Both the position numbers and the translations under genes were made by a program. Under the pieces are notes generated by a model. It saw only the letters and a program-made list of their open reading frames with translations, was not told the origin of the DNA and did not search any database. DNA of 64,000 bases from a virus: the UHGV virus genome UHGV-0310767, one strand, 5' to 3'. Shown here one piece after another: positions 9,466-42,991 of the stretch (position 1 is the stretch's first letter; every line of letters begins with the position of its first letter).

Positions 9466-9522
9466 CTTTCCACCTCCTTAATAATTATTATATCATTTCA
9501 TTTATCTTTTGTCAATATAAAG

Positions 9523-9806: not shown

Positions 9807-9920
9807 TACTTTACAGCAGTATTCTCCTTATACCAGGTACAGAGGGTGACTTAATCAGGAATTTTCAACTTCTGCCCAGCATAGATGATAGTACCCTTGA
9901 TGCCGTTCAGGTTGGCAATC

Positions 9921-11305: not shown

Positions 11306-11472
11306 ACCCCATAAAGGGGTGTGATTTTAGATTTTGAAAGCGGGACGCACACCGGCAGAGAGAGAAGCGGTTTAGTACTGCCATAATTTAACCAATTCCT
11401 TTCTTTATTTTTTTGATTGACAAGTTACATTTTATAAAAATAATCCCTCCACCAAACGGCAGAGAGATTAAT

Positions 11473-11811
11473 CTATCTCAACACGATTGGAGATATAACA
11501 TCAGGCGCAAATTCATCAAAGAAAGTGACTCCAATTATTTTGATATGCTCACAAGTTTTAAGAACTAAAACATCGTCATAAGCATCCAAATAATATTTGA
11601 ATTTTTCTTCCATGTTTTCTGCCATATTAATTATAATCTCAGGTTTTTTTAATCTATCGTCTTTTATAATAACAGCAATAAACTTATAATCATTTTCCAT
11701 TGCTATTAAAAAATAATTGACGAAAGATTCTCGGCTAATGTATGGATTAGCTACATTACTTTTTTTCTTTGGTTTTGGTTTACGATAAGGATAATAACCA
11801 CTTACTCCCAT
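11473..11811 (-). CDS. hypothetical protein
   Basis: 112-aa ORF. Confidence 0.35.
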   Translation of the reverse strand: MGVSGYYPYRKPKPKKKSNVANPYISRESFVNYFLIAMENDYKFIAVIIKDDRLKKPEIIINMAENMEEKFKYYLDAYDDVLVLKTCEHIKIIGVTFFDEFAPDVISPIVLR

Positions 11812-12854
11812 TATTCATCCTCCACTACAATTCCTCTGTCACAAGCAAAATCCACCAAAGTATTATAAATACTTTCCAGACAAGAAACTTCTTCGTCCGT
11901 GGCAGATGTTACAGTACGATTTTTACCTAACTGTCCATAAACCACATCATTTACAAAATCTGGATAAGGTTTATATAATCTAGCGATATAAGGTTTGATT
12001 AATTCAATCCAATCCTCTTTTGTATGTGCTGTATCTGTCACAGAAAATGTAGTTAATCCAACATTTTCATCTTCCGCTGATTTAATAATAGCTTTTTCCA
12101 TAGCTTCACACATATTAGCCGCTGTAAATGGGTCAATATAAGTCTGCATTGCATAACGGCTTCTTGCGAATACATGAGATGTTTCTTTACAAATTCCAGT
12201 AGACTTAATAGTCATATTTGTTTCTGGGTCAACACCATTTGCCTTTGTATAAATAGTGAAATCACAAATATCACGTATCATACGCATAGAAGATTTTTCA
12301 TTTCCACTTCCTTTTGGCTGTAAATAAGGAATAATTTCACCTGTTAATTCATTGAAATGCTTTTCATCTAATTCCTCATGAGCTATAAAAATAATAAAAT
12401 AACCCATAGACGTAAGTTTATTAATCTGTGTAGCGAACTGCCGTCTGGCTATTTTATAACCATTTGCTTTACCTTCAATTTCAGATAAATCTCTTACTCC
12501 AAAAGTTTTACATACTGACTGTTCACAAAGGTCAACAAGATTTTCTGCTGTATCAATTACAATTGTAAAGAATTTTTCTGACATTTCCTGATAAGTGGAA
12601 GGATTAGTTAGCAAAGATACATAATTTATAAAATCAGCCCATAAATTAACTGGCTTTTTATACCCTCTAATTCCATTTCCACCAGATTCAGTCATTAAGA
12701 GTAAGGCTCTATCACACTTCATGGCCTGGAAGGTTTTGCCTGTAGAATTTTTGCCATAAATTAAAACTTTTTGTCCTGCTAACCCACCAACCATATCCTC
12801 AATCTCTAAATCTAATAATGGATTTGATTTCTTTTTCTCAGTTTTTTCTGACAT
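11811..12854 (-). CDS. AAA_24-like P-loop ATPase (Sak4-type)
   Basis: 347 aa; Walker A GKNSTGKT, Walker B-like IVIDTAE. Confidence 0.45.
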   Translation of the reverse strand: MSEKTEKKKSNPLLDLEIEDMVGGLAGQKVLIYGKNSTGKTFQAMKCDRALLLMTESGGNGIRGYKKPVNLWADFINYVSLLTNPSTYQEMSEKFFTIVIDTAENLVDLCEQSVCKTFGVRDLSEIEGKANGYKIARRQFATQINKLTSMGYFIIFIAHEELDEKHFNELTGEIIPYLQPKGSGNEKSSMRMIRDICDFTIYTKANGVDPETNMTIKSTGICKETSHVFARSRYAMQTYIDPFTAANMCEAMEKAIIKSAEDENVGLTTFSVTDTAHTKEDWIELIKPYIARLYKPYPDFVNDVVYGQLGKNRTVTSATDEEVSCLESIYNTLVDFACDRGIVVEDE

Positions 12855-13006
12855 TTTATATTACCTTTCTTATTTTTATGATGATGAAGTTAAATTATTA
12901 AATGTTACAAGACAGTAGAGAGGTTTTAAGTTAATAGGCTACCCAATTCCCCACCTCTTACATTAAAACCTCTCCTATACCCTTTGTAACGTTTTTTAGC
13001 CTATGT

Positions 13007-14032
13007 TTAGAATGGCGCACCCTCCATGCCAGACATTGAGGCTACATTCGGCTTTCTGTTTCCTAATCCCTTAGACTTCCCGGCTTTAGAAGCAGGGGCC
13101 GCATTAGCAGTTGAACCATCTTTTGCTTTATCTTCAAGAACCTTAAGCTTCATTTCTCTTTCAACCATAAGAGATTTCATAATATCTGGCGTGAAAGGCT
13201 TTTTCTTTTCATCTTCTGTATCTTCATCATAGGCAGGTTCTCCACCTATAACAAGCAGTTCTAAAATCTCAAACCCTTCATTAGTATTGGCTTTTCTACC
13301 AAAGCCGCCTTTTTTCTGCTTCTGTCCTCCTATACGATGCATATTAAGTTCTACACCCAAACAGCACGTATCTCCTGGCGCATATCCTGGAACCTGTTCA
13401 CCTGTAATTTCATCTACATAGCCATCGACAAATGCTTCGGCTAAATCTTCTGGAACAATCAGAGTGAAAGGTTCTGCTTCTCCACGGAAATTGATGGTAA
13501 TAAATTCCACCATGTAGCGGCCTGTTTCTTCTGGTTCATCACTTTCATTTTTAGGAGGAATTGTTTCAGCCTTAATACTTCTGATTACTCCTTCTAACTG
13601 GAAGTCTGTCTGAGATTCCTTATCTGCATTTTCACGGTTCACCTTAATGATTCTTACCTGTGGGGAAGATACCATTTTTCCTGAGTTCTGATTGTATCTG
13701 TCCCAGCAACCTAAGTTTACAGTTGCGCTTATAACATCAGGAGTTAAATCTTTGTTCTTTGCCGCATCTGCCGCTGAAACATAAGAATTATGCAATGTTT
13801 CCATGTTTGCATAAAGTTTTGCTTTATCTCCTTTTCTGTTATATTCTGACTGATTGATTCTCAAATTGTAATCTCCATTCTTTGTAGAAATTACAATGTT
13901 GCCCTGTACCGCATTACAGGTCATTTTTGTGCCGTCCTCTTTTTCAATTTCCACCTGTTTGATTTCTGTAGATTTCTCAGACAGAACGCCGATGATAAGT
14001 CCATTATTGATTGTCGCTCTTACATTTTCCAT
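13007..14032 (-). CDS. hypothetical protein (possible ssDNA-binding/recombination protein), C-terminal ...GAPF tail
   Basis: 341 aa; acidic region and terminal APF reminiscent of SSB C-terminal tails; AAGGAG RBS. Confidence 0.3.
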   Translation of the reverse strand: MENVRATINNGLIIGVLSEKSTEIKQVEIEKEDGTKMTCNAVQGNIVISTKNGDYNLRINQSEYNRKGDKAKLYANMETLHNSYVSAADAAKNKDLTPDVISATVNLGCWDRYNQNSGKMVSSPQVRIIKVNRENADKESQTDFQLEGVIRSIKAETIPPKNESDEPEETGRYMVEFITINFRGEAEPFTLIVPEDLAEAFVDGYVDEITGEQVPGYAPGDTCCLGVELNMHRIGGQKQKKGGFGRKANTNEGFEILELLVIGGEPAYDEDTEDEKKKPFTPDIMKSLMVEREMKLKVLEDKAKDGSTANAAPASKAGKSKGLGNRKPNVASMSGMEGAPF

Positions 14033-14073
14033 TTAATATCTCCTTATTTTAAAAATTAATTTTAATTATTTTT

Positions 14074-14358
14074 TTACTGATTGGACTTTTTACCCTTAAG
14101 GTAAAGATTACGTGTTCCTTCTTCCAGCATACCTTTTTTATCAAGTTCTGCTGAACAAAATGCTTCAATGTCTGCAATAGTCTTTCCTGCCGTAATTAAA
14201 TCTTTTACAGTCTGAATGGCAGAATAGTAACTTGACAAAGCCGCATTAATAGCTATTGTTTTTTCACTTTCTTTAATTCCATTCATCATATAAGCTTTTT
14301 TAGTTTTAAAAGCTTTACTATTGCGATTGAAAACTTTTTTTGCTGGTGCACCACCCAT
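14074..14358 (-). CDS. hypothetical protein
   Basis: 94-aa ORF. Confidence 0.35.
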   Translation of the reverse strand: MGGAPAKKVFNRNSKAFKTKKAYMMNGIKESEKTIAINAALSSYYSAIQTVKDLITAGKTIADIEAFCSAELDKKGMLEEGTRNLYLKGKKSNQ

Positions 14359-14418
14359 TTATAAACCTCCTTCTCTGAATTAAATTGTTATTGTTTCTAT
14401 ATCATACAACAATTTAAT

Positions 14419-14655
14419 TTAATTGTCAAGAAGTTTCTGAAAATTTTCATAAAATTCTTTTGTTTCTTCATCCGAACAATGAAAAGTAACTACTAATTCC
14501 CTTGATAAATCCAAAGAGAATATTCCCATTATAGATTTTGCATCTATTGTGTAATGATTTAAAGAAATATCTATATCATAGTTCTGTTGAGAAGTAAATT
14601 CAACAAAAGCTTTTACTTCTTCTGGCGTATGAAAATGGATTTTATATTTTGTCAT
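14419..14655 (-). CDS. hypothetical protein
   Basis: 78-aa ORF. Confidence 0.35.
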   Translation of the reverse strand: MTKYKIHFHTPEEVKAFVEFTSQQNYDIDISLNHYTIDAKSIMGIFSLDLSRELVVTFHCSDEETKEFYENFQKLLDN

Positions 14656-14667
14656 ATATTTCCTTTC

Positions 14668-15114
14668 TTATTTTGTGCTGAACCAATGATTACCTAATTT
14701 GGTAAAATTGCGTCCATTGGATTTTCCTACAGAAAAATAAACATAATTAGTGGAGAAAATAGTTGGCCCATTTTCTACCACATATTTTACCGCTTCATAA
14801 TTTTCTTCATTAGGAACAGTACCTTTGAGTTTACTTGCTGTAGAAAATTGTCTCTTTTCGTATATAACGTCATAAACAGTATCTTCAAAATCACTGTCTA
14901 AAACTCGATTCAATACAACTTCTACTACTGCTTTTTGTCCATCTAGAGATTCGCCCCTAGCTTCATGGAAAACCAGAGCGGCAAGAAGGTCTATATCATC
15001 CTCTGAAATGGATATAGTTTCATAGGGGTTTGTAGTTTCTGCTTTTGCTATGTTTGTAAACATTAATGAAAAACTTAATGCTAACAAACATATAATTGAT
15101 TTTATTCCTTTCAT
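14668..15114 (-). CDS. cell wall hydrolase, SleB/CwlJ (Hydrolase_2) family, with signal peptide
   Basis: 148 aa; N-terminal signal peptide; LLAALVFHEARGES...GQKAVVEVVLNRV hallmark. Confidence 0.6.
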   Translation of the reverse strand: MKGIKSIICLLALSFSLMFTNIAKAETTNPYETISISEDDIDLLAALVFHEARGESLDGQKAVVEVVLNRVLDSDFEDTVYDVIYEKRQFSTASKLKGTVPNEENYEAVKYVVENGPTIFSTNYVYFSVGKSNGRNFTKLGNHWFSTK

Positions 15115-15157
15115 TTATACCTCCGTATTTTTTTATTTTTATCTTAGAACATTCAAT

Positions 15158-15358
15158 TTAACCACCTTCTTTCTTATTCTTATTTGAAAATATTCCTGGT
15201 TCATATTGTCTGGCACATCTCATAGCCATTACATATTGACATTTATGAATACTTTCCATAAAATCTTTTTGTTCATTAGGATGTTGGGAATCTAGTTCTA
15301 AAAATAAATTCCAACATCTAGTTAATAGTGTCATTACCATTATTTCTTTTATTTTCAT
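15158..15358 (-). CDS. hypothetical protein
   Basis: 66-aa ORF. Confidence 0.25.
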   Translation of the reverse strand: MKIKEIMVMTLLTRCWNLFLELDSQHPNEQKDFMESIHKCQYVMAMRCARQYEPGIFSNKNKKEGG

Positions 15359-15366
15359 TTTTCCTC

Positions 15367-16185
15367 CTATGCTAACTGCATATTAAGCATTACATTTTTC
15401 ACAGTTTCTTCTGTATTATGAGAATATCTCTGAGTAGTAGAGATATCAGAATGACAAATTACATCTTTAGCAATATTGATTCCATACTCATTACATATCT
15501 CACTAACATAAGTATGTCTTAAAGTATGATTACTAATATGTTCTTCAATATCTGCTTTTTCTGCAACCTTACGTAACATTTTAGAAATACAATCCCTTCT
15601 CATTGGGGTGCCATGATTACTAACAAATAAGTTAGGGATTCCTGAATTTTTACGTACTTTTATATATTCGTCTACAATTTTCCTACATTCTTCATTAAAG
15701 TATATTTTTCTCTCCCTATCCCCTTTAATTTTAATGGTTACAGTTTGAGAATTATACTGCTCTAAACTTAAATTAATAAGTTCACTAACACGCATACCCG
15801 TAGAAAGATATATAGCAATAATAGCTTTATCTCTAGGATTGCTGGCTTCTGTTAATAAGTTTTTAGCTTCCTTCATAGGAACATAGTCTTTCTTTTTATT
15901 CTTAATTGTTGGAGATTTTATTGTTGTTGCTGGGTTTAATGTCATAGTACCAACCTTACATAAAAAGTCATAGTAACTTTTTATAGCTGTAAGCTTTCTA
16001 GCGATTGTAGCACTGGCGTACCCTCTTTTAACCATCTCTGATTTCCAGTCATAAACTTCTCCATATGTAATTTTTGTTTCTTCTGTATTTACAAAATCAA
16101 AAAATTGATTAATGTCACTTTCGTAAGAAATTCTAGTATCTTCACTTTCAAACCCACCTAAAAATCTTTTAATATTGTTATTCAT
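15367..16185 (-). CDS. tyrosine site-specific recombinase (XerC/D-like integrase)
   Basis: 272 aa; C-terminal HTLRHTYVSE...HSDISTTQRYSH catalytic motif. Confidence 0.75.
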   Translation of the reverse strand: MNNNIKRFLGGFESEDTRISYESDINQFFDFVNTEETKITYGEVYDWKSEMVKRGYASATIARKLTAIKSYYDFLCKVGTMTLNPATTIKSPTIKNKKKDYVPMKEAKNLLTEASNPRDKAIIAIYLSTGMRVSELINLSLEQYNSQTVTIKIKGDRERKIYFNEECRKIVDEYIKVRKNSGIPNLFVSNHGTPMRRDCISKMLRKVAEKADIEEHISNHTLRHTYVSEICNEYGINIAKDVICHSDISTTQRYSHNTEETVKNVMLNMQLA

Positions 16186-16261
16186 AAGTATTACCTCCTT
16201 TATTTATATATTTATATTATCATACTTTCTTTAAAAAGTCAATAGTTTTCATCATAATTTT

Positions 16262-16292
16262 ATAAAAGCACCCTTATGAGGTGCTTTCTTTT
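16262..16292 (-). terminator. intrinsic terminator after 16274..16594
   Basis: hairpin aaagcacc/ggtgcttt overlapping the stop codon, followed by a T-run on the minus strand. Confidence 0.4.
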
Positions 16293-16594
16293 TCTGCCTG
16301 TATCATATTTCTATTTTTAAATTCTATATAATCTAAGACTTCTACGTCTTTATCTTCATTGATAGAGTACTGTATTTTAGGAATCTCCATACGACATTTC
16401 ATAGGAACGGTTTTATTTCTTATCTGTTTTATTAATTGTTTAAAAGTTCTTTTTAAAATTTCTTCTGAGCCTACTCTTTTTTCTCTATGGACTATTGTGT
16501 CCCCTGTCCATATGATAAATTCCACTTCATATTCTATAAAAATATTTCCAAAATTCATTCGTATCCAATCTTCCATATTAATGTTTGTATACAT
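16274..16594 (-). CDS. hypothetical protein
   Basis: 106-aa ORF. Confidence 0.35.
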   Translation of the reverse strand: MYTNINMEDWIRMNFGNIFIEYEVEFIIWTGDTIVHREKRVGSEEILKRTFKQLIKQIRNKTVPMKCRMEIPKIQYSINEDKDVEVLDYIEFKNRNMIQAEKESTS

Positions 16595-16603
16595 ATAGTT
16601 CTC

Positions 16604-17095
16604 CTATATCTCTAAATAATTTTCCCAATAATAATCCAGGTAATCATCCTGGTATACTTCTTTAACCTCCCTATCAGTATAATCATAACTAAAGTTGACA
16701 AAGATATTATCTTTTTTCTGTAGCCAATACACCTCAACAATATTTCTAACTTGTGGTCTATCTATTTTAAAATAGTCAGCCATCATATCAAAAATTTGTT
16801 CAGCTTCATACTGCGTTTGAGCCGCAATTACACATTTCTTTTTGTTTTTGGTTCTATGTCCGCATTCAACATACGTATAATAAAATGTATATAAGGTGAA
16901 ACTAGGATTCTTTTTATCCTCTTGTTCATCCAAAATTGCTCTTTGTCTTTGTTTCCACCTTTCATATTCATCTGAACTACCAAAATTCAAAGGCTTTTTT
17001 CTTATATAACTTTTTCTTGATTTACCACTCATATTTTTCTCCTTTCTTATTATGTAAATAAAGGGGATACTCACACTGGCAAGCACCCCCTCCAT
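16604..17095 (-). CDS. hypothetical protein
   Basis: 163-aa ORF. Confidence 0.35.
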   Translation of the reverse strand: MEGVLASVSIPFIYIIRKEKNMSGKSRKSYIRKKPLNFGSSDEYERWKQRQRAILDEQEDKKNPSFTLYTFYYTYVECGHRTKNKKKCVIAAQTQYEAEQIFDMMADYFKIDRPQVRNIVEVYWLQKKDNIFVNFSYDYTDREVKEVYQDDYLDYYWENYLEI

Positions 17096-17233
17096 TTTAG
17101 CATATATGACTGAATCCCTTATTGGGCGATTTGTTTTTCAACAATTGATTTTACATTCTTTTTTAAGGAGCCAGGATATCCTTTTGCGCGCGCGGCTCCG
17201 GACTCCTTTCTTAGTTTTCAAAAAAATCTCAGT

Positions 17234-17686
17234 TTACTTGATAAACACCAGCCATCTGGTTTTTCCTCTTTGGTCCCCTAAAAGCGGCTTTTTAGCAAAA
17301 CATTTTAATACTTCTGTTAATTTTATCTGGTTCTCACTCCATTTAAAAATCAGCAGCCCATCCGATTCTAAAACTCTCATGCACTCATTAAAACCTTGTT
17401 TCAGATACTCTGGCCAAGCCGCTGGCAGAATACCGTACTTACTGTCCAACCAGCTACCGGTTCCGGCATGGATAAGGTGCGGTGGGTCAAACACAACCAC
17501 CTTAAATGTATTGTCATGATACGGCATTTCCCGAAAATCCATTTGCACATCTGGTTTAATCAGCAGTGTGCGCCCATCACATAGTGTCGTTTCCAGCTCC
17601 CTGTTGTCGGCATATATTACCTCTGGATTCTGCCTGTCGAAATAAAACATTCGGCTGCCGCAACATGCATCTAAAATTCTTTTCAT
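17234..17686 (-). CDS. small SAM-dependent methyltransferase-like protein (motif I ILDACCGS, motif IV DPPH)
   Basis: 150 aa; spacing of motif I to DPPH as in RsmD and amino-MTases; region GC-enriched (about 45-50 percent). Confidence 0.4.
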   Translation of the reverse strand: MKRILDACCGSRMFYFDRQNPEVIYADNRELETTLCDGRTLLIKPDVQMDFREMPYHDNTFKVVVFDPPHLIHAGTGSWLDSKYGILPAAWPEYLKQGFNECMRVLESDGLLIFKWSENQIKLTEVLKCFAKKPLLGDQRGKTRWLVFIK

Positions 17687-17805
17687 TATTCACCTCTCCT
17701 AAATTTTAATTTTGTATCTCTTACAATAAAGAGTATATCACATACTTTATGATAAGTCAATCACTTTTTCAAAAAATTTTTTAATTTATTTTTTCATGTT
17801 CCGAA

Positions 17806-18393
17806 TTACTTTATATCCAATTCTTTTTTTAATTGTCTTATTAATTTATTTATAATTCTACTAATGTTAGAGTGAGTCGTGTTAAATTCTTTTGCGATTT
17901 CTATTTGTTTATAACCAGCAATAAATTTATATAATATCTTTTTTTCTTTTTCGTTTTTAATTTTATCCAAAAAATTCTCTAAAACTATTTTAATAATAGT
18001 TTCATTTTCTACATCACATCTTATATCAGAAATGCAATTTAATCCATCGTTTATTTCTTTATCATCATTAATTTTCCTAGATGTATTATAATGAAAAAGA
18101 TATTTTTCTCCTTCCCTCTTTTGCATGGTTTCTTTTCTCCATTGATGTTTTACTTCATTCCACATAATAAAATATGCATAAGTAGAAAATTTTGAACCTT
18201 GTTCTGGATTAAAAGTTCGTGCGGCTTTTACTAAACCGATAGCCGCAATATCATAGTAATCATCTATAGTTAAATTCCTACTTTTTAAAAAAGAATAAAT
18301 AAGATTATGATTTTCTGTAATAAAATAATCTAATTCATTCTTTGTGTAAGGGGGTAGTTTCAACGTTTCACTTCCTTTCTGAGTTTCAGACAA
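17806..18393 (-). CDS. sigma-70 family RNA polymerase sigma factor
   Basis: 195 aa; region 2 KFSTYAYFIMWNEVKHQWRK; region 4 HTH IAKEFNTTHSNISRI. Confidence 0.65.
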   Translation of the reverse strand: MSETQKGSETLKLPPYTKNELDYFITENHNLIYSFLKSRNLTIDDYYDIAAIGLVKAARTFNPEQGSKFSTYAYFIMWNEVKHQWRKETMQKREGEKYLFHYNTSRKINDDKEINDGLNCISDIRCDVENETIIKIVLENFLDKIKNEKEKKILYKFIAGYKQIEIAKEFNTTHSNISRIINKLIRQLKKELDIK

Positions 18394-18753
18394 TTAAAAC
18401 CGATTTAGATTTTATATATCTAAAAACCAATTTAAATTTTCTGATATCTTATATATTATATATCAACAATTATTTTAAAACCTATTATGCCATTCTCTAC
18501 ATAATAAGGAATAATAGAATTATACTCTGTGGTACATATTACCCTTAACATACATTCGGCATAATCTTTACCTGTCATATCACAAATTCTTCCTTTGTAT
18601 AAAGTTTCACCCCCCCACATACATTAAGATGAAGCCCTCTTGTGTCTAAATTAGATGAATAACTTTTGTTCTTGTGAATAAAGACATAAGTATTACTATC
18701 TAATTTATTTAATATATCCACTAAAAATATACTTTCCATAAATTTTCCTTTCT

Positions 18754-18930
18754 TTATTCTTTATTTACTTTTCTGACTTTTATATCCTTTAAAAAATCAC
18801 CAAAAGTTGCATAATATTCCCTTGCGCCTTTTAACCAAATAAGATATTTAGCTTTAGCATCTGATTCCGCTTCTATAAAATTTCCTTGCAGATGTTCTAC
18901 TGAGTTTGATTCATAATAATAAGTATTCAT
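18754..18930 (-). CDS. small hypothetical protein (58 aa)
   Basis: not in ORF track (under 60 aa); GAAGGAG RBS; preceded by consensus promoter. Confidence 0.4.
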   Translation of the reverse strand: MNTYYYESNSVEHLQGNFIEAESDAKAKYLIWLKGAREYYATFGDFLKDIKVRKVNKE

Positions 18931-19000
18931 TTTTTATCTCCTTCATAAAAAAATATTTTTTGATACTATCTTTAAAAATCCTATTTATAGATTTTATTAT

Positions 19001-19029
19001 ATTATAACATAAAAATAAAAAATTGTAAA
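19001..19029 (-). promoter_or_regulatory. sigma-A promoter (TTTACA-N17-TATAAT on minus strand)
   Basis: plus tgtaaa 19024-19029, attata 19001-19006, 17-nt spacer. Confidence 0.5.
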
Positions 19030-19047
19030 GAATAAAATAAATTTTTC

Positions 19048-19067
19048 CTTCAATTCGTAAAGTAAAA
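19048..19067 (+). repeat. conserved motif CTTCAATTCGTAAAGTAAAA, copy 2
   Basis: identical to copies at 4427 and 34674. Confidence 0.6.
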
Positions 19068-19812
19068 AAATAAAACAAAAAACGGCCGGGAATTTTTAAT
19101 ATCGCCATTACCGTTTTTTGTTTTATGTATTTTCGCCTGGAAATTTTCTTTATCGCCATTCTGGGATTTTTAGATTGCCCCAATTTACATACAAATTATT
19201 TATACAATTATTTACAAAAAATATTTTTCAAATTTAAATTGTAAGAATTTTCTGACTTTTAAAAATGGTCATAAAATTTCTGCTGTCTCGGTCCATCTTG
19301 TTTGCATCCTGTTATAAACTCGTAAAAAGCGTTTCTAGCCACTTTACATATGCGCTTGATATTTTATCCATCTTCACTATAAAGTGGCTAGAATTAGCTT
19401 ATAATGCGTTATACGGCATGTTAACATAATACTATGTGGTAAGGAGGATATAACGCCCCTCATTTTACATTGTCGGACATTTCCTCATGAACACTGTTAA
19501 AACTGGTCTTACTTGCTTTTACCGGGTTTTAACAACCTTCCTACATCGTCTAAACCTCTCAGAATCGCCATAGACGGCCTAAACACTCTTAAGCTTATAT
19601 AACTACCTTAAAGCCTTTAAACTCGACTCTCATTGATTCTGATAATCTCTAGTAAATTAATAGGAATGAATTTCAATTCATGACATACAGACTTTTACAC
19701 TTTACTTTATTAAATTATCAATGTCACATAAATAAAAATAAGTAACCCCTAAAGCTTTTACACTTTAAAGATTGCCTATACCTATTTAACGGTTTTATAG
19801 TGGCTATTTAAT

Positions 19813-19947
19813 TCAATGTTCCCATGTCAACCTTTTAATACCATTCACCCATATTTCTATATTACTACCTTCTCTAAACCACTCTACAGCGGTTTTATGG
19901 ACTTCTGTACATTCCCCTGTGGTAGTGTTCATGTAATATTTATTCAT
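19813..19947 (-). CDS. small hypothetical protein (44 aa)
   Basis: AAGGAG RBS; ATG at 19945-19947 (revcomp); TGA stop. Confidence 0.3.
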   Translation of the reverse strand: MNKYYMNTTTGECTEVHKTAVEWFREGSNIEIWVNGIKRLTWEH

Positions 19948-20183
19948 TTGTTGTTTACTCCTTTCTTCTCTTTCCTATAATGATATCATACATTTCATAT
20001 AAAGTCAAGTCTGAATATTTGCTATTTTAAACTGTAATTATCTGATAATTAAAAAATTGTACCTTCCATGTTTGCACAATCAAGTTTGCATTCCACACCA
20101 TACATTATGTAACTATTTAATTATGTAATAATTATATCATCATTTTATGAATCTGTCAATTACTTTTTTATATATTTTCATAA

Positions 20184-20214
20184 TAAAAACCTTCCATTTC
20201 TGGAAGGTTTTAAA
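20184..20214. terminator. bidirectional intrinsic terminator (aaccttcca / tggaaggtt)
   Basis: 9-bp stem, 4-nt loop, A-run before and T-run after. Confidence 0.5.
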
Positions 20215-20395
20215 AACTTAAACTTAATATGCATATGAAATTTTGTTCATAATAGCCCCGTACCGTGTCCCCTCTGGATTATATTTGAACATGGTATCAG
20301 TTGTAATAGCTGCCGGGTGGCGTTTCCCAGGTCTTTCTAAACAATGCTTTATACCTCCTCATACAAGAATACCCCGCACGGCGGCGGGGCTTCTT

Positions 20396-25016: not shown

Positions 25017-25349
25017 TTATTTATCTTCCCTTCTTTAATTTAAACTACAAAATTTTTATACTTTTATATTCTGCATCCTTGAAAAAATATAATATAGATA
25101 TAAACTGTCTTATTAACAAGCCGTCCATCACTATATTATTACTTTATATAAAAAAGAATATAATTATTACTAATACTACTATAACATAAGACCAATAAAA
25201 AAGCAAGCATAAAAATTATACTTGCATATAAAAAAGCCCCTGGAAATTTTCAAAACGTGGATTACCCCTTATTCCTGGATTTTCTGGACTTTTGTAAAAA
25301 TTGCTCTTGTATTTTCTTCCCAAAATTTTCCATTTTTAAATCTATCCAA

Positions 25350-25960
25350 CAATAAAAATAATTTGAATAGGCCTAAAAATTTTTAAGATTAAAGAAATGG
25401 TGCCAGCCAATGGGTAACTGCCGGCTTGTAATAGGGCTACAATGCACTACAATCACGCTACAACTGTTTTGATGATGATAGGTAAGGAAATGTACACCTA
25501 TGCCACAAAGTCCTGTTATACGGCCTTGTACGGACTTATAATCAAGGTTGACATAATACAGTCTTGCCCCATACGTCCCATCATAACGATTATTGCCACC
25601 TATCCATTGTCACATACACCCCACCATCAATCCATACAACGCCCTAGAATGCCTGTAAACGCTTTTAAATGAGTCAAGGGTAGAAATATACCATAATTAC
25701 CTTAAAACCCTTTAAAGGCCCTTTAAACGCTTTACAGGCAAGGTTTACATAATACAGCTTAAAAGATTGATTGCCCCATGCATCCTGCTGGCCTGTTATC
25801 TGTGACCAGCTTATGGCCCCTTGCGTCAATATGGTTACAAGGCCGTAAAAGGGACTACAAGCCGTTGTATGTCCCCATGTGGTGAAATATGCTACTGTAC
25901 CCCTAAAGGCCCTGGAAATGGCTTGTAATGCGTTGTAGGATAGGTTGACATAATTTTGTT
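25350..25960 (+). repeat. degenerate tandem repeat array, period ~195-200 bp, three units, each ending in a GGTTGACATAAT(A) core
   Basis: cores at about 25546, 25741 and 25941 (spacing 195 and 200 bp) preceded by AAAGGCCCT..AAACGCTTTACAGG-like segments; fourth partial copy at 29805-29850. Confidence 0.55.
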
Positions 25961-26080
25961 GTCATTGTGCTACGATTCTATAAAAATAATTTTCATAGAT
26001 TCATATGTGGTGAAAAAATTTTTCGTCACATATCAACCCACGAAAAAAAGGTGGTACACATGCACCACCTATGAAATTGA

Positions 26081-28457: not shown

Positions 28458-29174
28458 CTTTTATTTAGTTAAATGTATTTACATTTGTCAATGTACATTA
28501 TAATACCATTCACCTCATACTTTCTTATATATTGGATACGGCAGAACGCCTATAACTTATGTTTCCGACTTGGAAGAGATATTTATTTTTGATTGTGTCG
28601 TGTTGACCACGGTTATACAATACCGCTTACACAATTTCCTGTCAATATGTAAAAATAACTAAATTGCAATCAATTTATTATACATAATAGCTAAAAATAA
28701 ATAGTTGAAATGTTGCAAAAATCACAGTTAGTAATGCCTATTGGTACATTCATATACATATACGTCCACACAATTTTATTTTATTGTATATAATCACATG
28801 TCAAAAAATACCCCTAAAACTTATGCAAAGTGTACAATTATATATGCCTAACTTAAATCATGCACAAAAACCATGTAAGAAAAAATATTTATTTTGTCTA
28901 TTATTTATATTAGCATTCTGAAAAAGTAATCTGATAATTCCCAACACTTTCAGAATTGATTAAATTGTGTTGCCCCATTATCGCACTATTAAATGTATTA
29001 GTCCCCAATAGTTTTAATATACATCAAATCTCGCTACTGTTTAAAAGAATTATCTGATAACTTATTGGGCCAATATACAATTCAATTTAAGTTGCGTATA
29101 GAATTTAAAAGATTGTATATAATTATAAATACAAAACTTGATACCATTAAATTAAATAAGGAGGAATAATATTC

Positions 29175-29471
29175 ATGAGTAACAAATATCAGACAATTAG
29201 AGAAATTTATATTGACCTTTACATTCGCAATAAAGCCATTGTAAGGGCCAACAAGAAAGAAAAACCAGAGGATTTTCCTATTATTAAGGTAAGTGGAAAA
29301 CGGCTCATGCAATTGTCCAGGATGAATTTTTTAAGGAGGAAAGAGATAACCAATGATTTTTCTAATGGTTTACTCACTGATAAGGGATACAAAGAAGAAA
29401 TGACTATTTGCCAATATATTAGTTATCAGATAACCAATACAGAACATTCACAGAAAATTTTGTTTGTTTAG
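29175..29471 (+). CDS. hypothetical protein (lone plus-strand gene; possible regulator)
   Basis: 98 aa; strong RBS AAGGAGGAATAATATTC-ATG; TTATCNGATAA palindromes upstream and inside its 3' end. Confidence 0.45.
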   Translation: MSNKYQTIREIYIDLYIRNKAIVRANKKEKPEDFPIIKVSGKRLMQLSRMNFLRRKEITNDFSNGLLTDKGYKEEMTICQYISYQITNTEHSQKILFV

Positions 29472-29869
29472 AAATTTTTTGCTAATAAAATCACGTCTTT
29501 CAGATTTTTTATCTGTCTAGTTTTTTCTTAATGTTTTATTATGTGCAAATTGTGTTTAGTGCTTCTCAAAACGTGCAGTATTTAAAAGATAGATTAGTAC
29601 TATACGATTACACAAGCACTAAATGCGATTTGCATATACAATTTCAATTACTTTTTCAATAGGTGTGACTGTATAGGCCATTCAAATAAAACCATTACCA
29701 AAATCCCCATTGTCAGATAATAACATAGTATAGCATACTACGTATCATAGTTTCGATTGGAAAAGGGTGAGTGATAATATATGAGGGTAAAAACTAAAAG
29801 CCCAGGAAATGGCCTTTAAACGCTTTACAGGGCATGTTGACATAATAAGAGCGCGGGATTCCACCTCTA

Positions 29870-31450
29870 TATATTATAATAGATTATATATAATGATGGG
29901 ATTAATAAGTGAATATGATAAGTGGAAGTGCTTACAAATTGTGTGGGAATTGTGTAGGATTATGTAAACCTTTATGTTAGCACTGTCAATAGGTGAGTGC
30001 CAAAAGGTAAGTAAATGATTACAATAAGTATGTGGTGATTATCGACAACGATTTATATTTTGTGGCTGTGAATTGTAAATAGGGATTCATAATTCATAGT
30101 GGATGATAGTAAACACTTGCTTACTATATGGAGAGGGCAGAGGTACATATAATATAATATTATATAATATATAATATGAAAATGAAAATAGGAATCGTTA
30201 TCAATATGTTTCACGTGGAACAATAGGTGGGGAATATGGATGAATGTGTGAGCGTGCAGAGGATGGTATAAAGGAGTACAGAGATGTTACAAGGGCGTGT
30301 ATGGGGTGATGTGGACAATTGTGTAGGGATGGGGTGATTGTGGGTATATGGGCGTTGTACTGCGTGATAGGGAAGATGGGAGATTGAGGGATGGAGAATG
30401 TAAGGGGATTGTGGGGAGAATGTGGGGATAGGGTGGATGGAGATAAGGGAGAGTGTAGGATATGTGAGTGAGAGGATGGAGAAAATGGAATGGGAAGATA
30501 TAGGAAAGTATAGGGTGAGAGGTGGGAAGTGTAGGGAGATATGGGAGAGGTGAGAGTGGGAGAATGTGGGTGAATGTATCTCATATTTTGAGGGTTCGCC
30601 ATTACCCTATTATAATATATACATATGTACTCTGTGACATTTCGGACGGACTGAAAACGCTTTCAACCAATACTTTTCATTAGGTAGCGTCAAAAAATTA
30701 ACAAAAACTCAAGGTTTTACCTTAAAAGTGTACATAATATGTATTATGGACGCTTTTTGGATATGGATACACCAACTGCGCATCCCCCCATTCCCCGGCC
30801 TTTTGGCAATTGTCAGAAAATTCACCTTAGATGGGGGGGTACTTTCAGACAATTCGGATATACGAATTTCAAGAATGAGGTATAGCTGTCCCACCACGAA
30901 CTATTTCACTATCTCACCCTCCATCTCATTTATTAATATATATTAATATACTATTATATATTATATTTATATATACCCCTCTATCCCCCTCCTATCTCCC
31001 CTCTCCTATCCATCTCCCACTCAACACATCCCCTACCCTTCCCCCATACTTTTAAAATTTAATTTTAACTCTACACCCTATCCCTTACACTACTATAATT
31101 TATACCACTCCCCTCAGTTTCCCCTATACCTTTCCCTACACTTTTAATCTTCCCTACTCAACTGCACTTTTTATCAATACTTCCGCACCTTGCCTACCTC
31201 AACTTTTTCAATCTCCATTGACGGCAACTCCAATTTTTTCATAAATCACTTCTACGCCTTACACTTTTTAGTAGCACCCCTCTAATTTTCATAACAATTC
31301 AGTACCACTTTTAACCACCCCAAAATTGAGCAAAATTTCTCAAAAATTTTTTGATGCCACCCAAATTTTGGAATCTTAAGCCCCATTCTGATTTGAGCGG
31401 ATTGTGGTGTGATTCTGTCTGGTTACAACCTCATACACGCCATATCTGGC
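29870..31450. other. strand-asymmetric noncoding block: plus strand G/A/T-rich and nearly C-free (about 29870-30600, pure over about 30370-30588), ~350-bp centre, then C/A/T-rich and nearly G-free (about 30960-31450)
   Basis: direct reading of base composition; G3+ tract clusters (e.g. gggatggggtgattgtgggtatatggg); C7...G7 inverted tracts at the centre (about 30786-30850). Confidence 0.6.
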
Positions 31451-31654
31451 CCTTTTACATCTTATCGTGACCAATCCTCCATTTCGCCTATTGAGCCGCT
31501 TCTACTCTCTTGTACTCGTTCATATTTTTTTAAAAATTAAATTTAAAAAAAGAGAACCGACTAAATTCGATTCTCTTATAAGCGTTTTAAGTTTATTTTT
31601 CTAAACATTGCTAAATATAAAGTTTTTATTTAAATCTTTTTTTATTACAATTTA

Positions 31655-32221
31655 TCAATGATAGCCGTTTTCTCTGTCCCACACTTTTCTGTAGTGGTCG
31701 AACATGCCAATATCTGCCGCAAAACTAGTAGTATAGATTGCATCAATATCAAAACTATCATCTTCATCTTCTTCATTGTTTCGATTGGTCAAATCGCTTT
31801 TGTAGGTGTTTAAATCCATCCATCCATGACCATTTAATCTGCCGCTTGTTCCAATGCCCCGTAACACGCCAGTACTGGAAACTGGGGTATTTTTCATATC
31901 TGTATTAAGCATTACTAAATATAAACTTCCGCTTCGTGTCTCCACAATCATTCCTGACTTTAGGAAATCTTTGGGGGCGATATCTTCTTCTTTTGGAGGG
32001 GCCGGGATTGGGGCCGTGTCTGTGAACTGAATATGCTCCACTCTGGGGATTACCATTTTTCCGCTGGGGAGTTTTACCAAGGCAACAGGATATTGTCCTA
32101 ACGAACCTCCTGTCTGATAATCCTTATCATAATTGGTGCTAAAGCCGCAAAACTCGCCGTCTTTGAAAAGTACATATCCTAATTTTTCATCCCAATATTT
32201 ACCACAACATTTACCTTCCAT
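31655..32221 (-). CDS. hypothetical protein
   Basis: 188-aa ORF. Confidence 0.4.
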   Translation of the reverse strand: MEGKCCGKYWDEKLGYVLFKDGEFCGFSTNYDKDYQTGGSLGQYPVALVKLPSGKMVIPRVEHIQFTDTAPIPAPPKEEDIAPKDFLKSGMIVETRSGSLYLVMLNTDMKNTPVSSTGVLRGIGTSGRLNGHGWMDLNTYKSDLTNRNNEEDEDDSFDIDAIYTTSFAADIGMFDHYRKVWDRENGYH

Positions 32222-38339: not shown

Positions 38340-39146
38340 CTCCTTTTAGTCTATTTTATTTTAATAATAACAGAATATAATATAAATGTCAATATGTAAT
38401 TTTTTATTATATATTTTATATTATATGTATATTAATTAAATATATGTATAATAATTATATAATATTATAAAATATATAAATATAATATAATTAATAATAA
38501 TTTATATTTAATTAATATTGTTATTACTAATTCCCCAAAATATTTGTATTGTTATTTTAGTTTTTTTGCAAGCAAAAAAACCAAATAACGAAAACAAATA
38601 TTTTTTCAATTGATATAATTAATATTTTTTATAAACATAAATTCACAAATTTCTTGGTTTTATATATAATAATAGTTATCTATAAACAATTACTAATATA
38701 AATTTATATAACTCTTTCCACTTCGTTACAAGAGTTATATAAATTTCTAAAGTAATTGTAATTATATCTAATTATTATTATATATAAAACAGAAATTTAT
38801 AAATTTATATAAAAAATATTAATTATATCAATTGGATAGGGGTATTTTTTATATAATAATTATATAATTAATAATATATAATATATATTATTTATATTAT
38901 TAAATATATTATATATTATTATATTTTATAATAATATTTATATATTATATTTTATATATAGTATATAGTATTACCTCCGAATTTTTTCTTATACCGTTAT
39001 TTTTTAAAAAATTTTTTATGTAATAAAAACAATTAATAAAATTAGTATAAAATGTCTTTATTTTTTAATATTAAAATATATATTGACAAAATTGTATATA
39101 TAATATATAATACAATCATCACAAGAAATATTAAGAAAGGGACAAT
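38340..39146. other. ultra-AT-rich (about 10 percent GC) divergent intergenic region with perfect inverted repeats; candidate origin or switch region
   Basis: 16-bp perfect IR aatttatataactctt (38701-38716) / aagagttatataaatt (38730-38745), 13-nt spacer; palindrome tttttttgc-aa-gcaaaaaaa (38561-38580); many (ATATAAT)n-like repeats. Confidence 0.4.
39083..39111 (+). promoter_or_regulatory. consensus sigma-A promoter for RNAP gene (TTGACA-N17-TATAAT)
   Basis: ttgaca 39083-39088, tataat 39106-39111; 35 nt before ATG 39147. Confidence 0.55.
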
Positions 39147-41642
39147 ATGCAAAATAGTAGAAGAAAAATATTTAAGATTTCTACAGAGAGATTAGCTTCT
39201 AACAATTGGGATATTAAGTTAGACCAAAAATTAGCTGTAAGGTTAGATGAATTAGTAGATTTATTTGATAATCAGTCTTTTAGGTTGTTGGATATTATTT
39301 CCAAAGCTTACAAATCCAATCTTACAGATAAAGTGCTGGCAGTAGAAATATCTAAGAAAAAAGATTATGCCAGGGCTACTTCTCCAAAAGGCATTTATGT
39401 AAATGGTTTTAATTTCCAATGGTTTGTAGGAACTACAGGAGGATTGAAAAATGAAACTATTTTATTTGTTCGTTCTGACCTTTTAGGAGAATTAGACAAA
39501 AGATGTGAATGCGGCAGAAAAAAAGATTATAAACTGGTTCCTGCAAAGTATGAAGCTTATAAATCTCTTACTTGTTCTGCATCTTTAGAAATTGTGGAAC
39601 CTAGAGATGTACTTGTGGTTTCTGATTGTTTTGTTGATTTTTATGACAGTGTAATCAATATAGATGATACTAACAATGATGAACCAGAAGTAACAATATT
39701 GGAAAATATTTTACTTAAAAATAATGGCAGTGATGGTTTAAATTTATGTACGCCAGAATATATGCAGAGAGTAGCAGAAAAGCTTAAGTTAGATTATATT
39801 CCTGCTGGTGGTTGTTTAAGAAATGCGTGGCTTAAAGGAATGCTGTATGTGTTCGATATTCTTGATTTTGCTGAGAAAATAGCCCATACTTACGAAGTGA
39901 AAGATATTTGGGGGCATATTCATGATATTCGTAATGTGGATATGATTATTACAGAATCCAGTTTAAAGATTTGGGATAATTATGATAGTTGGGAAGATTA
40001 TCATAGCAATTATATAAAAAATGGTTATCGTTTTGCCATGACTAAAGTTACACCTAAAGTTTTGGATGATGTAAGAGAAATAAATTATCAGTACTTACAA
40101 TCTTACGAATTGACAGATGAAGATATTAAAGAGTTGGCTAAACCTACTGTTGATTGGCTTAAGCAATCTTTGACTGGCGATTATGAACAAACTTTAAAAT
40201 TTCTGGGAATAAGTGAAAAAACAAAGAGTAATGATTATGCACAAGCATTATATCTTAATCCAGAAATGATGAAAGACCCTTATGTAATTGACAGAATTAA
40301 TAAAATGATAAAGAAAAAAATCAATAATGCTAAGATTGGTAAATTATTGGTTAATGGAAATTATCAGCTTGTAAGTGGCGACCCTTATGCTTTAATGCAA
40401 CATGTTTTTGGGTTAGAAGTTACAGGTCTTTTAGAAGCAAAAGAAGTTTATTCCAAATATTGGAATGATAAAGAAGATGCAGAAGAATTAGTATGTTTTC
40501 GTAGTCCTATGACAAGTCATAACAATATTCGTAAAATGAAAAGAATTAATAATGATACTGTGAATTATTGGTATCGTCATATGGATACTATATTTATTAT
40601 TAACAACAAAGATACGTTTTGTATGGCTATGAATGGTTGCGATTTTGATGGCGATGCTATTTATTCTACAAATAATAAAGTTTTATTGAGAAAGTATGTA
40701 GAATTATTAGCTATTCAGTGTGTTCAGCGTAAAGCCCAAAAACAAATTGTTACTAGGTCTATGATAAAAAAGAGCAATTACAAAGGATTGGGAAATGGGG
40801 TTGGTAAAATTACCAACGATGTATCCAGTATGATTGATATTCTCTTTGGGTTACAAAAGGGTACAATTGAGTACGAGACACTTTACAAACGTATTCTATG
40901 TGGTCAGCTATTCCAACAGAACGAATTGGATAAGTTGAAGGGAATCATTGCAAAAGATATGCCTAAAAACTGGTATATGAAAAATCATTGCCAAACAGAA
41001 TTAGATTTAGCTATTGTAGCTGATAAAAAGCCTTATTATTTTATGTATAATTATCCTGTCATTAAAAGAGATTATGATAATTACATTAAACATACAAGAG
41101 AAAAATGTTTAATGATATATGGATGTACTGTGGAAGAATTGAAAAATAAAGAAAATTTAACAAAAGAAGAAGAAGAATTTTTATATTGGTATAATGTTCA
41201 AATGCCAGTTAATTGTTCTCCATCTACAATGAATCGTTTATGTTGGTATATTGAATCTGAGTTTAATGGATATGTTACTCAACTAAAGAATCAAAATTTT
41301 GATTATTCTTTTTTAAAGAGTGATAAAGTTATTCGATATCCAAAAGCAAAAAAAGAAGAAATTGAAAAATTAGAAAAAGAATATGTACGCAGAATTAAAA
41401 ACTTTAAAATAATTGCTAAAGAAAATAATTTATCTGCCGAAGAAGCAAATAAAAAGACAGAAGTATTACAGCAGGAATTTAGAGATGAAGCAATAAAGAT
41501 TTGTTCTAATAAGTGGCAGTTAATGAATATAGTATTAGATTTATGCTATGGAAAGAATAAGAACAAATATTTTTGTTGGGCTGTTATTGGAGATTTAATA
41601 ATTGAAAAATTAAAAGAAGATGGAGAGAAAGAAAATGAATAA
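39147..41642 (+). CDS. YonO-like single-subunit two-barrel (DPBB) DNA-dependent RNA polymerase
   Basis: 831 aa (YonO about 840 aa); AMNGCDFDGDAIY carries the beta-prime-type DFDGD catalytic motif; first gene of late arm. Confidence 0.55.
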   Translation: MQNSRRKIFKISTERLASNNWDIKLDQKLAVRLDELVDLFDNQSFRLLDIISKAYKSNLTDKVLAVEISKKKDYARATSPKGIYVNGFNFQWFVGTTGGLKNETILFVRSDLLGELDKRCECGRKKDYKLVPAKYEAYKSLTCSASLEIVEPRDVLVVSDCFVDFYDSVINIDDTNNDEPEVTILENILLKNNGSDGLNLCTPEYMQRVAEKLKLDYIPAGGCLRNAWLKGMLYVFDILDFAEKIAHTYEVKDIWGHIHDIRNVDMIITESSLKIWDNYDSWEDYHSNYIKNGYRFAMTKVTPKVLDDVREINYQYLQSYELTDEDIKELAKPTVDWLKQSLTGDYEQTLKFLGISEKTKSNDYAQALYLNPEMMKDPYVIDRINKMIKKKINNAKIGKLLVNGNYQLVSGDPYALMQHVFGLEVTGLLEAKEVYSKYWNDKEDAEELVCFRSPMTSHNNIRKMKRINNDTVNYWYRHMDTIFIINNKDTFCMAMNGCDFDGDAIYSTNNKVLLRKYVELLAIQCVQRKAQKQIVTRSMIKKSNYKGLGNGVGKITNDVSSMIDILFGLQKGTIEYETLYKRILCGQLFQQNELDKLKGIIAKDMPKNWYMKNHCQTELDLAIVADKKPYYFMYNYPVIKRDYDNYIKHTREKCLMIYGCTVEELKNKENLTKEEEEFLYWYNVQMPVNCSPSTMNRLCWYIESEFNGYVTQLKNQNFDYSFLKSDKVIRYPKAKKEEIEKLEKEYVRRIKNFKIIAKENNLSAEEANKKTEVLQQEFRDEAIKICSNKWQLMNIVLDLCYGKNKNKYFCWAVIGDLIIEKLKEDGEKENE

Positions 41643-42933: not shown

Positions 42934-42991
42934 TAATTTTTAAAAATAAATTTTAATTATTATTATTTTAATGTGAAGATTGGAGATTTTT

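Follow-up and report, generated by a model that had tools for sequence, protein, structure and literature searches.

The repeat array near 25 kb of this phage DNA consists of three copies of a short polar cassette, which belongs to a family whose five full elements are spread over three non-coding islands of the early gene block. Comparison of sequences indicates that the element is real, conserved and probably regulatory, and as to its function we infer, with about even chances of being right, that the elements are factor-dependent, non-canonical rightward promoters which were locally amplified. The argument draws on family membership, architecture, a locked orientation, a conservation footprint, variation in copy number and mosaic junctions, all of which were observed directly; that the elements are active as promoters, which polymerase or factor serves them and what the transcripts do is presumed from them.

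Genomic setting

The window, by which we mean the whole analysed stretch of 64,000 nucleotides, comes from a phage closely related to PMBT24, which is a virulent phage of Enterocloster bolteae. Between 24 and 31 kb it is 93% identical to PMBT24 (OQ326496.2, 99,962 bp) and 75-86% identical to the phages CB457P1/P2 and CB473P1/P2/P3. PMBT24 itself, a siphovirus of the pac type with circular permutation, was proposed as the type of "Kielvirus/Kielviridae", and its database record starts at the pac site (PMC11035940). In the window, the genes from about position 1 to 38.4 kb point leftward and comprise replication and recombination genes and many small unknowns; from 39.1 kb onward the genes point rightward and encode an RNA polymerase, HU-like proteins, the terminase and structural proteins. 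Three long non-coding islands break the leftward block:

18935-20390, non-coding: island I19, holds the element c0
25017-26080, non-coding: island I25, holds the array of elements c1-c3
28458-31655, non-coding: island I29, holds the element c4; 30581/30582 is the equivalent of the PMBT24 pac site

In alignments of the islands their mean column identity was 83-85%, which is better than the conservation of the adjacent genes. The array had been described as the border of a higher-GC island. The GC content of that island is indeed raised, but modestly so (36.6% versus 32.0% for the window, 89th percentile), and the array itself reaches 41%, which places it at the 94th percentile of the window.

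Copies of the repeated element

The 10-nt core GTTNACATAA has exactly six matches in the 64 kb, where 1.4 are expected. Five are on the plus strand (19420, 25547, 25743, 25944 and 29836) and one is on the minus strand (29960). When at most one mismatch was allowed, GGTTGACATAAT was found five times versus 0.5 times expected, a number that none of 100 shuffles reached; its plus-strand sites are 25546-25557, 25742-25753, 25943-25954 and 29835-29846. Resemblance among the copies reaches about 40 bp upstream of the core (repeat family D1, 54 nt, 63-80% identity). With a 74-nt nhmmer profile, the full elements c1-c4 were retrieved at E values of 1e-14 to 1e-18, and the same five plus-strand sites, and only these, were retrieved in the window and in the complete 99,962-bp genome of PMBT24. 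The copies of the window are:

19370-19432, plus strand: c0, a weaker full element in island I19, core GTTAACATAA at 19420-19429, nhmmer E = 4e-6
25486-25559, plus strand: c1, first element of the array, core at 25546-25557, nhmmer E = 8e-18
25683-25755, plus strand: c2, second element of the array, core GGTTTACATAAT at 25742-25753, nhmmer E = 3e-16
25884-25955, plus strand: c3, third element of the array, core at 25943-25954, nhmmer E = 4e-16
29777-29847, plus strand: c4, outlying full element in island I29, core TGTTGACATAAT at 29835-29846, nhmmer E = 3e-16
29959-29970, minus strand: c5, a core-only copy (GGTTTACATAAT), convergent with c4 across 112 bp

The three spaced units with a conserved core that the preliminary description had reported were found again on the plus strand, with cores 196 and 201 bp apart, and the outlying copy at 29.8 kb proved to be real and a full element (29777-29847). 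Two copies had been overlooked, namely the weaker c0 on the plus strand and the core-only c5 on the minus strand. The motif AAAGGCCCT.. had been ascribed to all three units; it is present in copies 2 and 3 but not in copy 1.

The idea of a tandem repeat of about 197 bp did not hold up. TRF shows no such period, even at a score of 30, and on self-alignment of the 197-bp units (Smith-Waterman versus dinucleotide shuffles) significance was limited to the last ~50 nt. Once the final 20 nt had been taken away, the alignments u1-u2, u1-u3 and u2-u3 gave z values of only 0.8-1.6. Since the units align significantly over the last ~50 nt only and a TRF period is lacking, the array is a set of three cassettes of about 55 bp, placed 196 and 201 bp apart. 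Units 1 and 2 share about 35 nt directly after the core (ACAG..TTGCCCCAT.C.TCC), and this is the trace of an old local duplication.

Anatomy of the cassette

Each full element (c0-c4) contains four direct hexamers of the consensus TTKWAM that start at 0, 10/11, 20 and 32/33. The hexamers take the forms TTATAC, TTGTAC, TTATAA, TTGACA, TTTAAA, TTTACA, TTGTAA and TTGTAG, with TTATAC/TTGTAC/TTATAA/TTGACA as the row in c1, and are separated by G+C-rich linkers (GGCC, TGCG, CGC). TTGACA, the last of the four, continues directly into TAAT to give GTTKACATAAT, and a comparison of about 30 distinct copies, both paralogues and orthologues, showed GTT-N-ACATAA to be invariant. Direct hexamer repeats with a periodicity of 10-11 bp upstream of a -10, as in promoters of the OmpR/PhoB type, are present.

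On the suggested likeness to an extended -10 the copies give a mixed picture. CATAAT, a 5/6 match to the sigma-A -10 with A at -11, occurs in all five plus-strand copies of the window, and TG is found at -15/-14 in three of the five (c1, c3 and c4, but not c2 and c0). The T at -7 varies, several orthologues having C or A in its place (c1 and c4 of CB473P3, c2 of CB473, and c0 of the relatives L006, L008 and L009). The C at -12 is invariant. A -35-like hexamer (TTGTAC, TTTAAA, TTGTAA or TTATAA) lies 20 bp upstream of CATAAT, or 19 bp in c5 of the window, and no -35 hexamer was found at the canonical sigma-A spacing of 16-18 bp upstream of the -10. Overlapping -35 and -10 hexamers, with the TTGACA of the core as -35, had also been proposed; this was abandoned, as no copy has a -10 (TAnnnT) 16-18 bp downstream of TTGACA. 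Thirteen strong gene promoters on the minus strand show the textbook arrangement TTGACA-N17-TGnTATAAT, and hence the cassettes form a distinct class.

Bending by A-tracts was considered as a common feature and rejected: phasing at 10.5 bp is strong at c2 (99th percentile), weak at c4 and not seen at c0, c1 and c3. Inspection by eye for sigma-K, -E, -G and -H motifs, IHF and cre sites and MerR-type dyads gave none that was consistent over the copies. In its more upstream part, each array unit has a GAAATAT box as well as (C/T)TACAA boxes, two or three in number and spaced by about 10 bp. The following ones are kept even in relatives with a single array copy:

25434-25466, plus strand: three CTACAA boxes, spaced by 10-11 bp, which precede the c1 core by about 95-125 bp, TRF period 10

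Orientation and neighbouring features

All five full copies share one orientation, which is antisense to the flanking genes and the same as that of the late genes, and every full cassette opposes incoming leftward transcription. Thus, c3 faces the 3' end of a leftward 7-gene operon, and c0 faces canonical minus-strand promoters at 20008 and 20159. Neither RBS nor ORF follows the full elements. Since no gene and no conserved small RNA is located directly downstream of the cassettes, the benefit of transcription from them is conjectural. The neighbouring features are:

25203-25225, minus strand: terminator-like hairpin at the left border of the array island, conserved in the alignment
25558-25630, plus strand: unconstrained spacer directly downstream of c1; likewise 25754-25830 after c2
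26003-26033, plus strand: conserved hairpin ATATGTGGTGA/TCGTCACATAT, about 50 nt downstream of c3
26049-26070, minus strand: intrinsic terminator that ends the leftward 7-gene operon, with a T-run on the minus strand only; right border of the array
29866-29897, no strand assigned: invariant AT-rich block of 32 bp (CTATATATTATAATAGATTATATATAAT) between c4 and c5 in the alignment

In the alignment, the terminator at 26049-26070 shows compensatory changes among the relatives (GGTGGT../GACGGC..). Because its T-run is restricted to the minus strand, rightward transcripts would read into the operon as antisense RNA. The hairpin at 26003-26033 shows one compensatory change from G-C to C-G and G-T pairs that are valid on the plus strand only. 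About 500 nt downstream of c4, a 216-nt tract free of C has about 48% G on the plus strand and is mirrored by a 218-nt tract free of G; this pair is kept in all relatives.

Conservation in related phages

The elements are kept in about 12 related phages. They were found at the same places and on the same strand in PMBT24, in four to five of the CB457/CB473 phages, in four IMG/VR contigs and in at least five to six metagenome contigs; c0 is kept in PMBT24 and in L006-L009. The core of c5 is kept as well, with variable upstream sequence and spacing. A metagenome pattern scan yielded, among the matches listed, mostly chance hits and at least six true relatives, one of them contig L133. No match to the cassette patterns was obtained in 185,579 bacterial genomes, and in the viral collection unrelated phages gave only chance matches inside genes, for example in a tail gene.

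Between PMBT24-like and CB473-like lineages, the elements are 68-96% identical and the distal upstream parts 64-87%, as compared to 33-51% for the 73-77 bp that directly follow each core. Conservation thus has a polar footprint, which breaks off sharply on its 3' side, at the core. In the comparison of c1 with CB473P1, for instance, identity drops from 96% in the element to 33% in the next 73 bp, and the spacers after c1 and c2 are 33-34% and 48-51% identical to those of the CB473 phages. The relatives L008 and L009 have a version of c4 without the two middle hexamers, which indicates that those two are not indispensable.

A more distant relative, the 199-kb contig L010, encodes a neighbouring protein with 32% identity to that of the window. 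Here, at least eight repeated cassettes are placed before small genes in sense orientation, in the order terminator hairpin, T-run, nACATAAT, conserved leader and RBS. This layout indicates that CATAAT without a -35 sits at promoter positions in this phage or host group.

Copy number and recombination

Most of the phages carry three array copies. In CB457P1 there are two, unit 2 (c2) having been removed precisely from core to core; the metagenome contig L133 also has two, with breakpoints unlike those of CB457P1, and L008 and L009 have a single one. Two lineage switches were found exactly at cores as well. CB473P1 changes at the c1 core from 97-99% PMBT24-like sequence on the left to 92-96% CB473P3-like sequence on the right, and CB457P1 changes at a core from 88% CB473P3-like on the left to 94-95% PMBT24-like on the right. 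From these sequence comparisons it appears that the cassettes mark recombination junctions in the variable region, as PeSL cassettes do.

The core as a general mosaic breakpoint was rejected, as only one of six junctions between the window and PMBT24 (24-31.7 kb) falls at a core-like site. This junction, at 27033, coincides with the coding-region sequence GTTTACATAAT, which is present in PMBT24 and in CB473P1/P3, and may be due to chance (roughly p = 0.03-0.05 by our own estimate).

Interpretation as promoter cassettes

Among the functions offered in the preliminary description, repeated promoters antisense to the gene block at 26.1-28.5 kb fit best, because the cassette is a polar block that ends in CATAAT, has TG in three of five copies, is followed by unconstrained sequence and occurs in one orientation, and because of the cassettes of L010. 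To judge from the sequence, such promoters would not be canonical sigma-A promoters.

The elements would then be one-directional promoter cassettes of a non-canonical kind and form a small family confined to PMBT24-like (proposed Kielvirus) phages. In a cassette of about 55 bp, the row of four helically phased TTKWAM hexamers would serve a factor whose subunits dock in tandem, and the last hexamer would be fused to a -10-like (T)KACATAA(T). Each non-coding island between leftward early/middle operons would hold one such cassette, firing rightward, against leftward transcription and toward the late genes. In the 25-kb island, local amplification may have led to three copies about 200 bp apart, after which the intervening DNA would have drifted freely. 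The likely output would be antisense or non-coding transcription for which the sequence near the 5' end is irrelevant and which could interfere with the leftward operons or insulate against them; a transcript from c4 would enter conserved non-coding DNA adjoining the pac site. As islands of near-identity in diverged DNA, the cassettes could also act as crossover points that allow changes in copy number and the joining of segments of different phage lineages. In the PMBT24 paper, promoters were predicted in silico, and no cassette sequence is among those listed in its PhagePromoter table (PMC11035940).

Counted against a promoter function are the -35-like hexamer at 20 bp, the missing TG in c2 and c0 and the variable T at -7. 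Moreover, a polar protein-binding site without transcription would give the same comparative pattern.

Alternative explanations

We consider it possible, if somewhat unlikely, that the cassettes are such binding-site arrays, in which phased hexamers and core load a multimer of a phage or host DNA-binding protein and no transcript starts. The bound protein could be a repressor or roadblock versus read-through between leftward operons or an architectural HU-like protein, or the sites could be a titration sink. Four direct hexamers about one helical turn apart are a classic layout for tandem binding, the invariant positions are those of GTTNACATAA and not the key positions of sigma-A, and the elements lie at operon boundaries adjoining terminators. 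Among the proteins of the phage are two HU-like ones and a small sigma factor, and the copy number varies as would be expected of a dosage or titration element. However, no cognate protein was found; strict polarity, together with conservation that ends sharply at a -10-like hexamer, is seen more typically in promoters; and the cassettes of L010 carry CATAAT at promoter positions. The only plus-strand gene nearby, at 29175-29471, encodes a 98-aa protein that has no Pfam or PHROG match. It was rejected as the cognate factor, as it is not co-conserved: PMBT24, CB457P2, L133 and L008/L009 lack it and keep the elements.

An RNA-level element is very unlikely. It would require that the islands are transcribed as long non-coding RNAs, either leftward from canonical minus-strand promoters or by read-through, or rightward from further upstream, and that the element acts in the RNA, for instance in protein binding or processing. 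The surroundings would allow for this: I19 lies downstream of strong minus-strand promoters (20159, 20008), and a terminator-like hairpin near 19085-19120 marks its end, I25 has a minus-strand terminator on either side, and the islands are more conserved than neighbouring genes. In addition, the distal half of c0 pairs with 19333-19346 in a perfect inverted repeat of 14 bp, and the pairing of this stem (19333-19346/19380-19393) is kept in L007 and L008 by G-U pairs that form on the plus strand only, with RNAalifold energies of -15.9 kcal/mol for the plus and -12.4 for the minus strand. Together, the plus-strand-compatible variation in this stem and in that at 26003-26033 makes some plus-strand transcription of the islands plausible, but it does not make the cassette an RNA motif. 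The folding energy of the array did not differ significantly from that of shuffles on either strand (z = -0.08 and -0.58), Rfam gave no family at the gathering threshold and only chance-level matches at E <= 1, and no intramolecular pairing is common to the five paralogues. Hexamers at 10-11 bp with free linkers are a signature of DNA recognition, not of helices. The lack of an RNA structure signal and of an Rfam match indicates a function at the level of DNA.

Least probable is a function in replication, be it as iteron-like initiator sites or as promoters that prime replication, with c4 and c5 as convergent promoters around an AT-rich unwinding block and a c4 transcript that forms an R-loop in the C-free, G-rich tract by pac. 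Designs of promoter plus unwinding element are found in the origins of T4 and T7, the cores of c4 and c5 flank the invariant AT-rich block of 32 bp, and the conserved C-free/G-free pair follows c4. However, c0 and c1-c3 have no AT-rich or G-rich sequence downstream. The iteron-type origin once envisaged for the array found no support, since the spacing of about 200 bp is unlike that of iterons, an adjacent AT-rich unwinding region is missing and the replication genes lie at about 1-8 kb of the window and beyond, with helicase, primase and polymerase at least 17 kb from the array. The minimum of the cumulative GC skew, at about 38.5 kb, coincides with the flip in gene orientation and not with the array, and the nearby PhageTerm read-start peak was assigned to pac in PMBT24 (PMC11035940).

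Comparison with known systems

The closest known analogue would appear to be the promoter-early stem-loop (PeSL) cassettes of T4-like phages (PMC2839356, PMC4122927), to which the cassettes are dissimilar in orientation and architecture. In both systems, short and conserved cassettes of the promoter type recur among variable regions of small unknown genes and are crossover points that join unrelated sequence and alter gene content, here in two lineage switches and two unit deletions. However, PeSLs are canonical sigma-70 early promoters with a terminator hairpin, in sense orientation to the genes they serve. The cassettes described here run antisense to every flanking gene, have no -35 at the correct spacing, contain phased hexamers and number five to six per genome, and most of the junctions (five of six between the window and PMBT24) lie away from them.

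Among sites of the OmpR/PhoB family, those of B. subtilis PhoP are TT(A/T/C)ACA repeats with a periodicity of about 11 bp, and that of CiaR is TTTAAG-N5-TTTAAG. Promoters of this type resemble the cassettes in that three to five direct TTnACA-like hexamers, one per helical turn, take the place of a -35 and are followed by a -10-like hexamer. They differ in that response-regulator sites normally end near -20 to -35, whereas the last hexamer here overlaps the -10. Furthermore, the hexamers here are degenerate (TTKWAM), c4 of L008/L009 tolerates the loss of two, and the regulator is only presumed.

With the extended -10 (TGn) sigma-A promoters of Firmicutes the cassettes share TGACATAAT in c1, c3 and c4, which matches TGnTATAAT at 8/9 positions, including A at -11 and T at -7. 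Unlike these, they have an invariant C at -12, no TG in c2 and c0 and a T at -7 that is unconserved in orthologues, and the phage's own genes use perfect TTGACA-N17-TGnTATAAT promoters. The iteron arrays of plasmid and phage origins are likewise direct repeats in one orientation, but their units of 17-22 bp lie 0-12 bp apart and adjoin an AT-rich region and usually an initiator gene. In the present case, the units are about 200 bp or kilobases apart and a region of the unwinding type is found only at c4/c5.

Candidate readers and significance

The phage encodes a divergent sigma factor of 214 aa with regions 2 and 4, two HU-like proteins, and a protein of 831 aa that has the DFDGD motif of two-barrel polymerases and is 100% identical to the "RNA-dependent RNA polymerase" of PMBT24. 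The order of the 831-aa polymerase gene, the HU-like genes and the late operon is syntenic with yonO-yonN(HU)-late operon of SPbeta; no core-like motif was visible in the yonN-yonK gap of SPbeta. For YonO, a single start site has been mapped, very few promoters are used and the promoter sequence is undefined (PMC5467207).

That the cassettes are initiation sites of a YonO-like single-subunit two-barrel RNA polymerase or of the small divergent sigma factor is a doubtful proposition. If this were the case, antisense transcripts from the early region would cross the leftward operons on their way to the late genes and could shut off early expression, those from c4 would enter the C-free, G-rich tract at pac, and the cassettes would supply the first promoter consensus for that class of polymerase. 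We regard the clues from polymerase, sigma factor, SPbeta and the late intergenic region as leads and not as tests.

The cassettes are the most conserved non-coding DNA of a newly described group of gut phages ("Kielviridae") and run against the flow of the early genes. Should they be promoters, they would point to a transcription programme dedicated to an antisense or insulating role, for which the phage might use its unusual RNA polymerase or sigma factor, and would offer testable promoter parts for Lachnospiraceae, which are poor in genetic tools. If they are merely protein-binding sites or weak promoters, the finding is an ordinary one. The cassettes also illustrate how, in phages other than the T4-like ones, changes in copy number and mosaicism are driven by short conserved regulatory cassettes.

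Just upstream of the late genes, CATAAATAA occurs four times and has ACATAA in common with the core, a likeness that is suggestive only.

Motifs related to the cassette core

Over positions 6800-20362 of the distant 199-kb relative (L010, IMGVR_UViG_3300045988_180675), at least eight repeated cassettes of ~65 nt lie ahead of small genes in sense orientation. Each follows the same order of terminator hairpin, T-run, nACATAAT, a conserved leader (TTATTTGATGATCATGGAGAA) and RBS, and together they are a system in a Firmicutes phage that resembles the PeSL (promoter-early stem-loop) cassettes of T4-like phages.

The hexamer ACATAA is common to the cassette core of the window and to CATAAATAA, which occurs seven times on the plus strand and once on the minus strand of the PMBT24 genome. 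Four copies (14098, 16990, 23070 and 29258 in L011, a PMBT24 record) are situated 10-90 nt upstream of the following late genes, and CATAAATAA is possibly a T4-late-like promoter motif of the -10-only type:
14112, gene
portal gene
gene after the major capsid gene
29280, gene

A further motif, GTTTACATAAT, resides within a minus-strand coding region of PMBT24 (L001 5720-5730; PMBT24 ~95,896) and of CB473P1/P3, though not of the window. Its position coincides exactly with the point, window 27033, at which homology between the window and PMBT24 restarts. The agreement could be due to chance, or it could hint that breaks or crossovers occur preferentially at the core.

Repeated boxes and conserved stretches in the non-coding islands

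In I29, the non-coding island that carries the cassette copies c4 and c5, AATTGTGT boxes are recurrent:
29549 (+), within a long hairpin (29540-29638)
29935 (+) and 29946 (+), tandem copies with an 11-bp period, immediately left of the core-only copy c5
28630 (-), inside the spacer of a candidate leftward promoter, TTGACA-17-TATTGT (28645-28617)
These boxes may be operators of some regulator. Island I19 contains ~750 bp of non-coding sequence (19060-19815) with a mean column identity of 83% in an alignment of six phages; its segment 19740-19812, which begins with CCCCTAAAGCTTTTACACTTTAAAGATTGCCTATACC, is near-invariant. Another box, CCTGGAAATTTTC, is common to I19 (19136) and to I25 (25239), the island of cassettes c1-c3.

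I29 also holds a pair of strongly biased tracts. The first (30364-30579) comprises 216 nt without any C and with ~48% G, and is built of GGGAGAATGTGG-type repeats with G4-like G-runs. After a gap of 319 nt it is followed by a G-free tract of 218 nt (30899-31116) with AT-rich palindromes at 30931-30975. The pair is kept in PMBT24, CB473P1/P3, CB457P1/P2 and the contigs L008 and L009, each tract measuring 150-230 nt. The pac site of PMBT24, which is position 1 of its record, corresponds to window 30582, 3 nt past the end of the C-free run.

Switch region and late operon

The segment 38001-39000, where the leftward gene block gives way to the rightward one, is extremely AT-rich (16% GC) and contains long C-free and G-free runs (38830-38973). 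Two canonical promoters diverge here, at 38392 (-) and 39083 (+), and the cumulative GC skew reaches its minimum in this segment. With these features it is a candidate for an origin of replication or for a region of early control.

The 831-aa protein encoded at 39147-41642 (+) contains the two-barrel RNA polymerase motif NGCDFDGD and bears the name 'RNA-dependent RNA polymerase' in the PMBT24 annotation; sequence searches of Pfam and PDB gave no match for it. Downstream of its gene come two HU-like genes, listed here, and then the packaging/structural operon:
42577-42933, HU-like gene
42980-43486, HU-like gene
Since this order is identical to the yonO-yonN-late operon order of SPbeta, the protein is identified as a YonO-like phage RNA polymerase.

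The large terminase gene (44606-48891) is broken into three exons, which share 99.5-100% identity with the unsplit TerL of PMBT24:
44606-45127, exon 1
46281-47033, exon 2
48307-48891, exon 3
The two insertions of ~1.2 kb carry one ORF apiece (45188-46006 and 47661-48275), and the second starts with a group I intron (47025-47355; Rfam RF00028, 96.6 bits).

Absence of GATC sites

GATC is wholly missing from the window (0 sites versus ~189 expected), from the complete PMBT24 genome (99,962 bp, L011+L012) and from the loci of all relatives, which suggests that a host restriction system specific for GATC has been under strong counter-pressure from selection on these phages. In 20 kb of the distant relative L010 there are 88 GATC sites.
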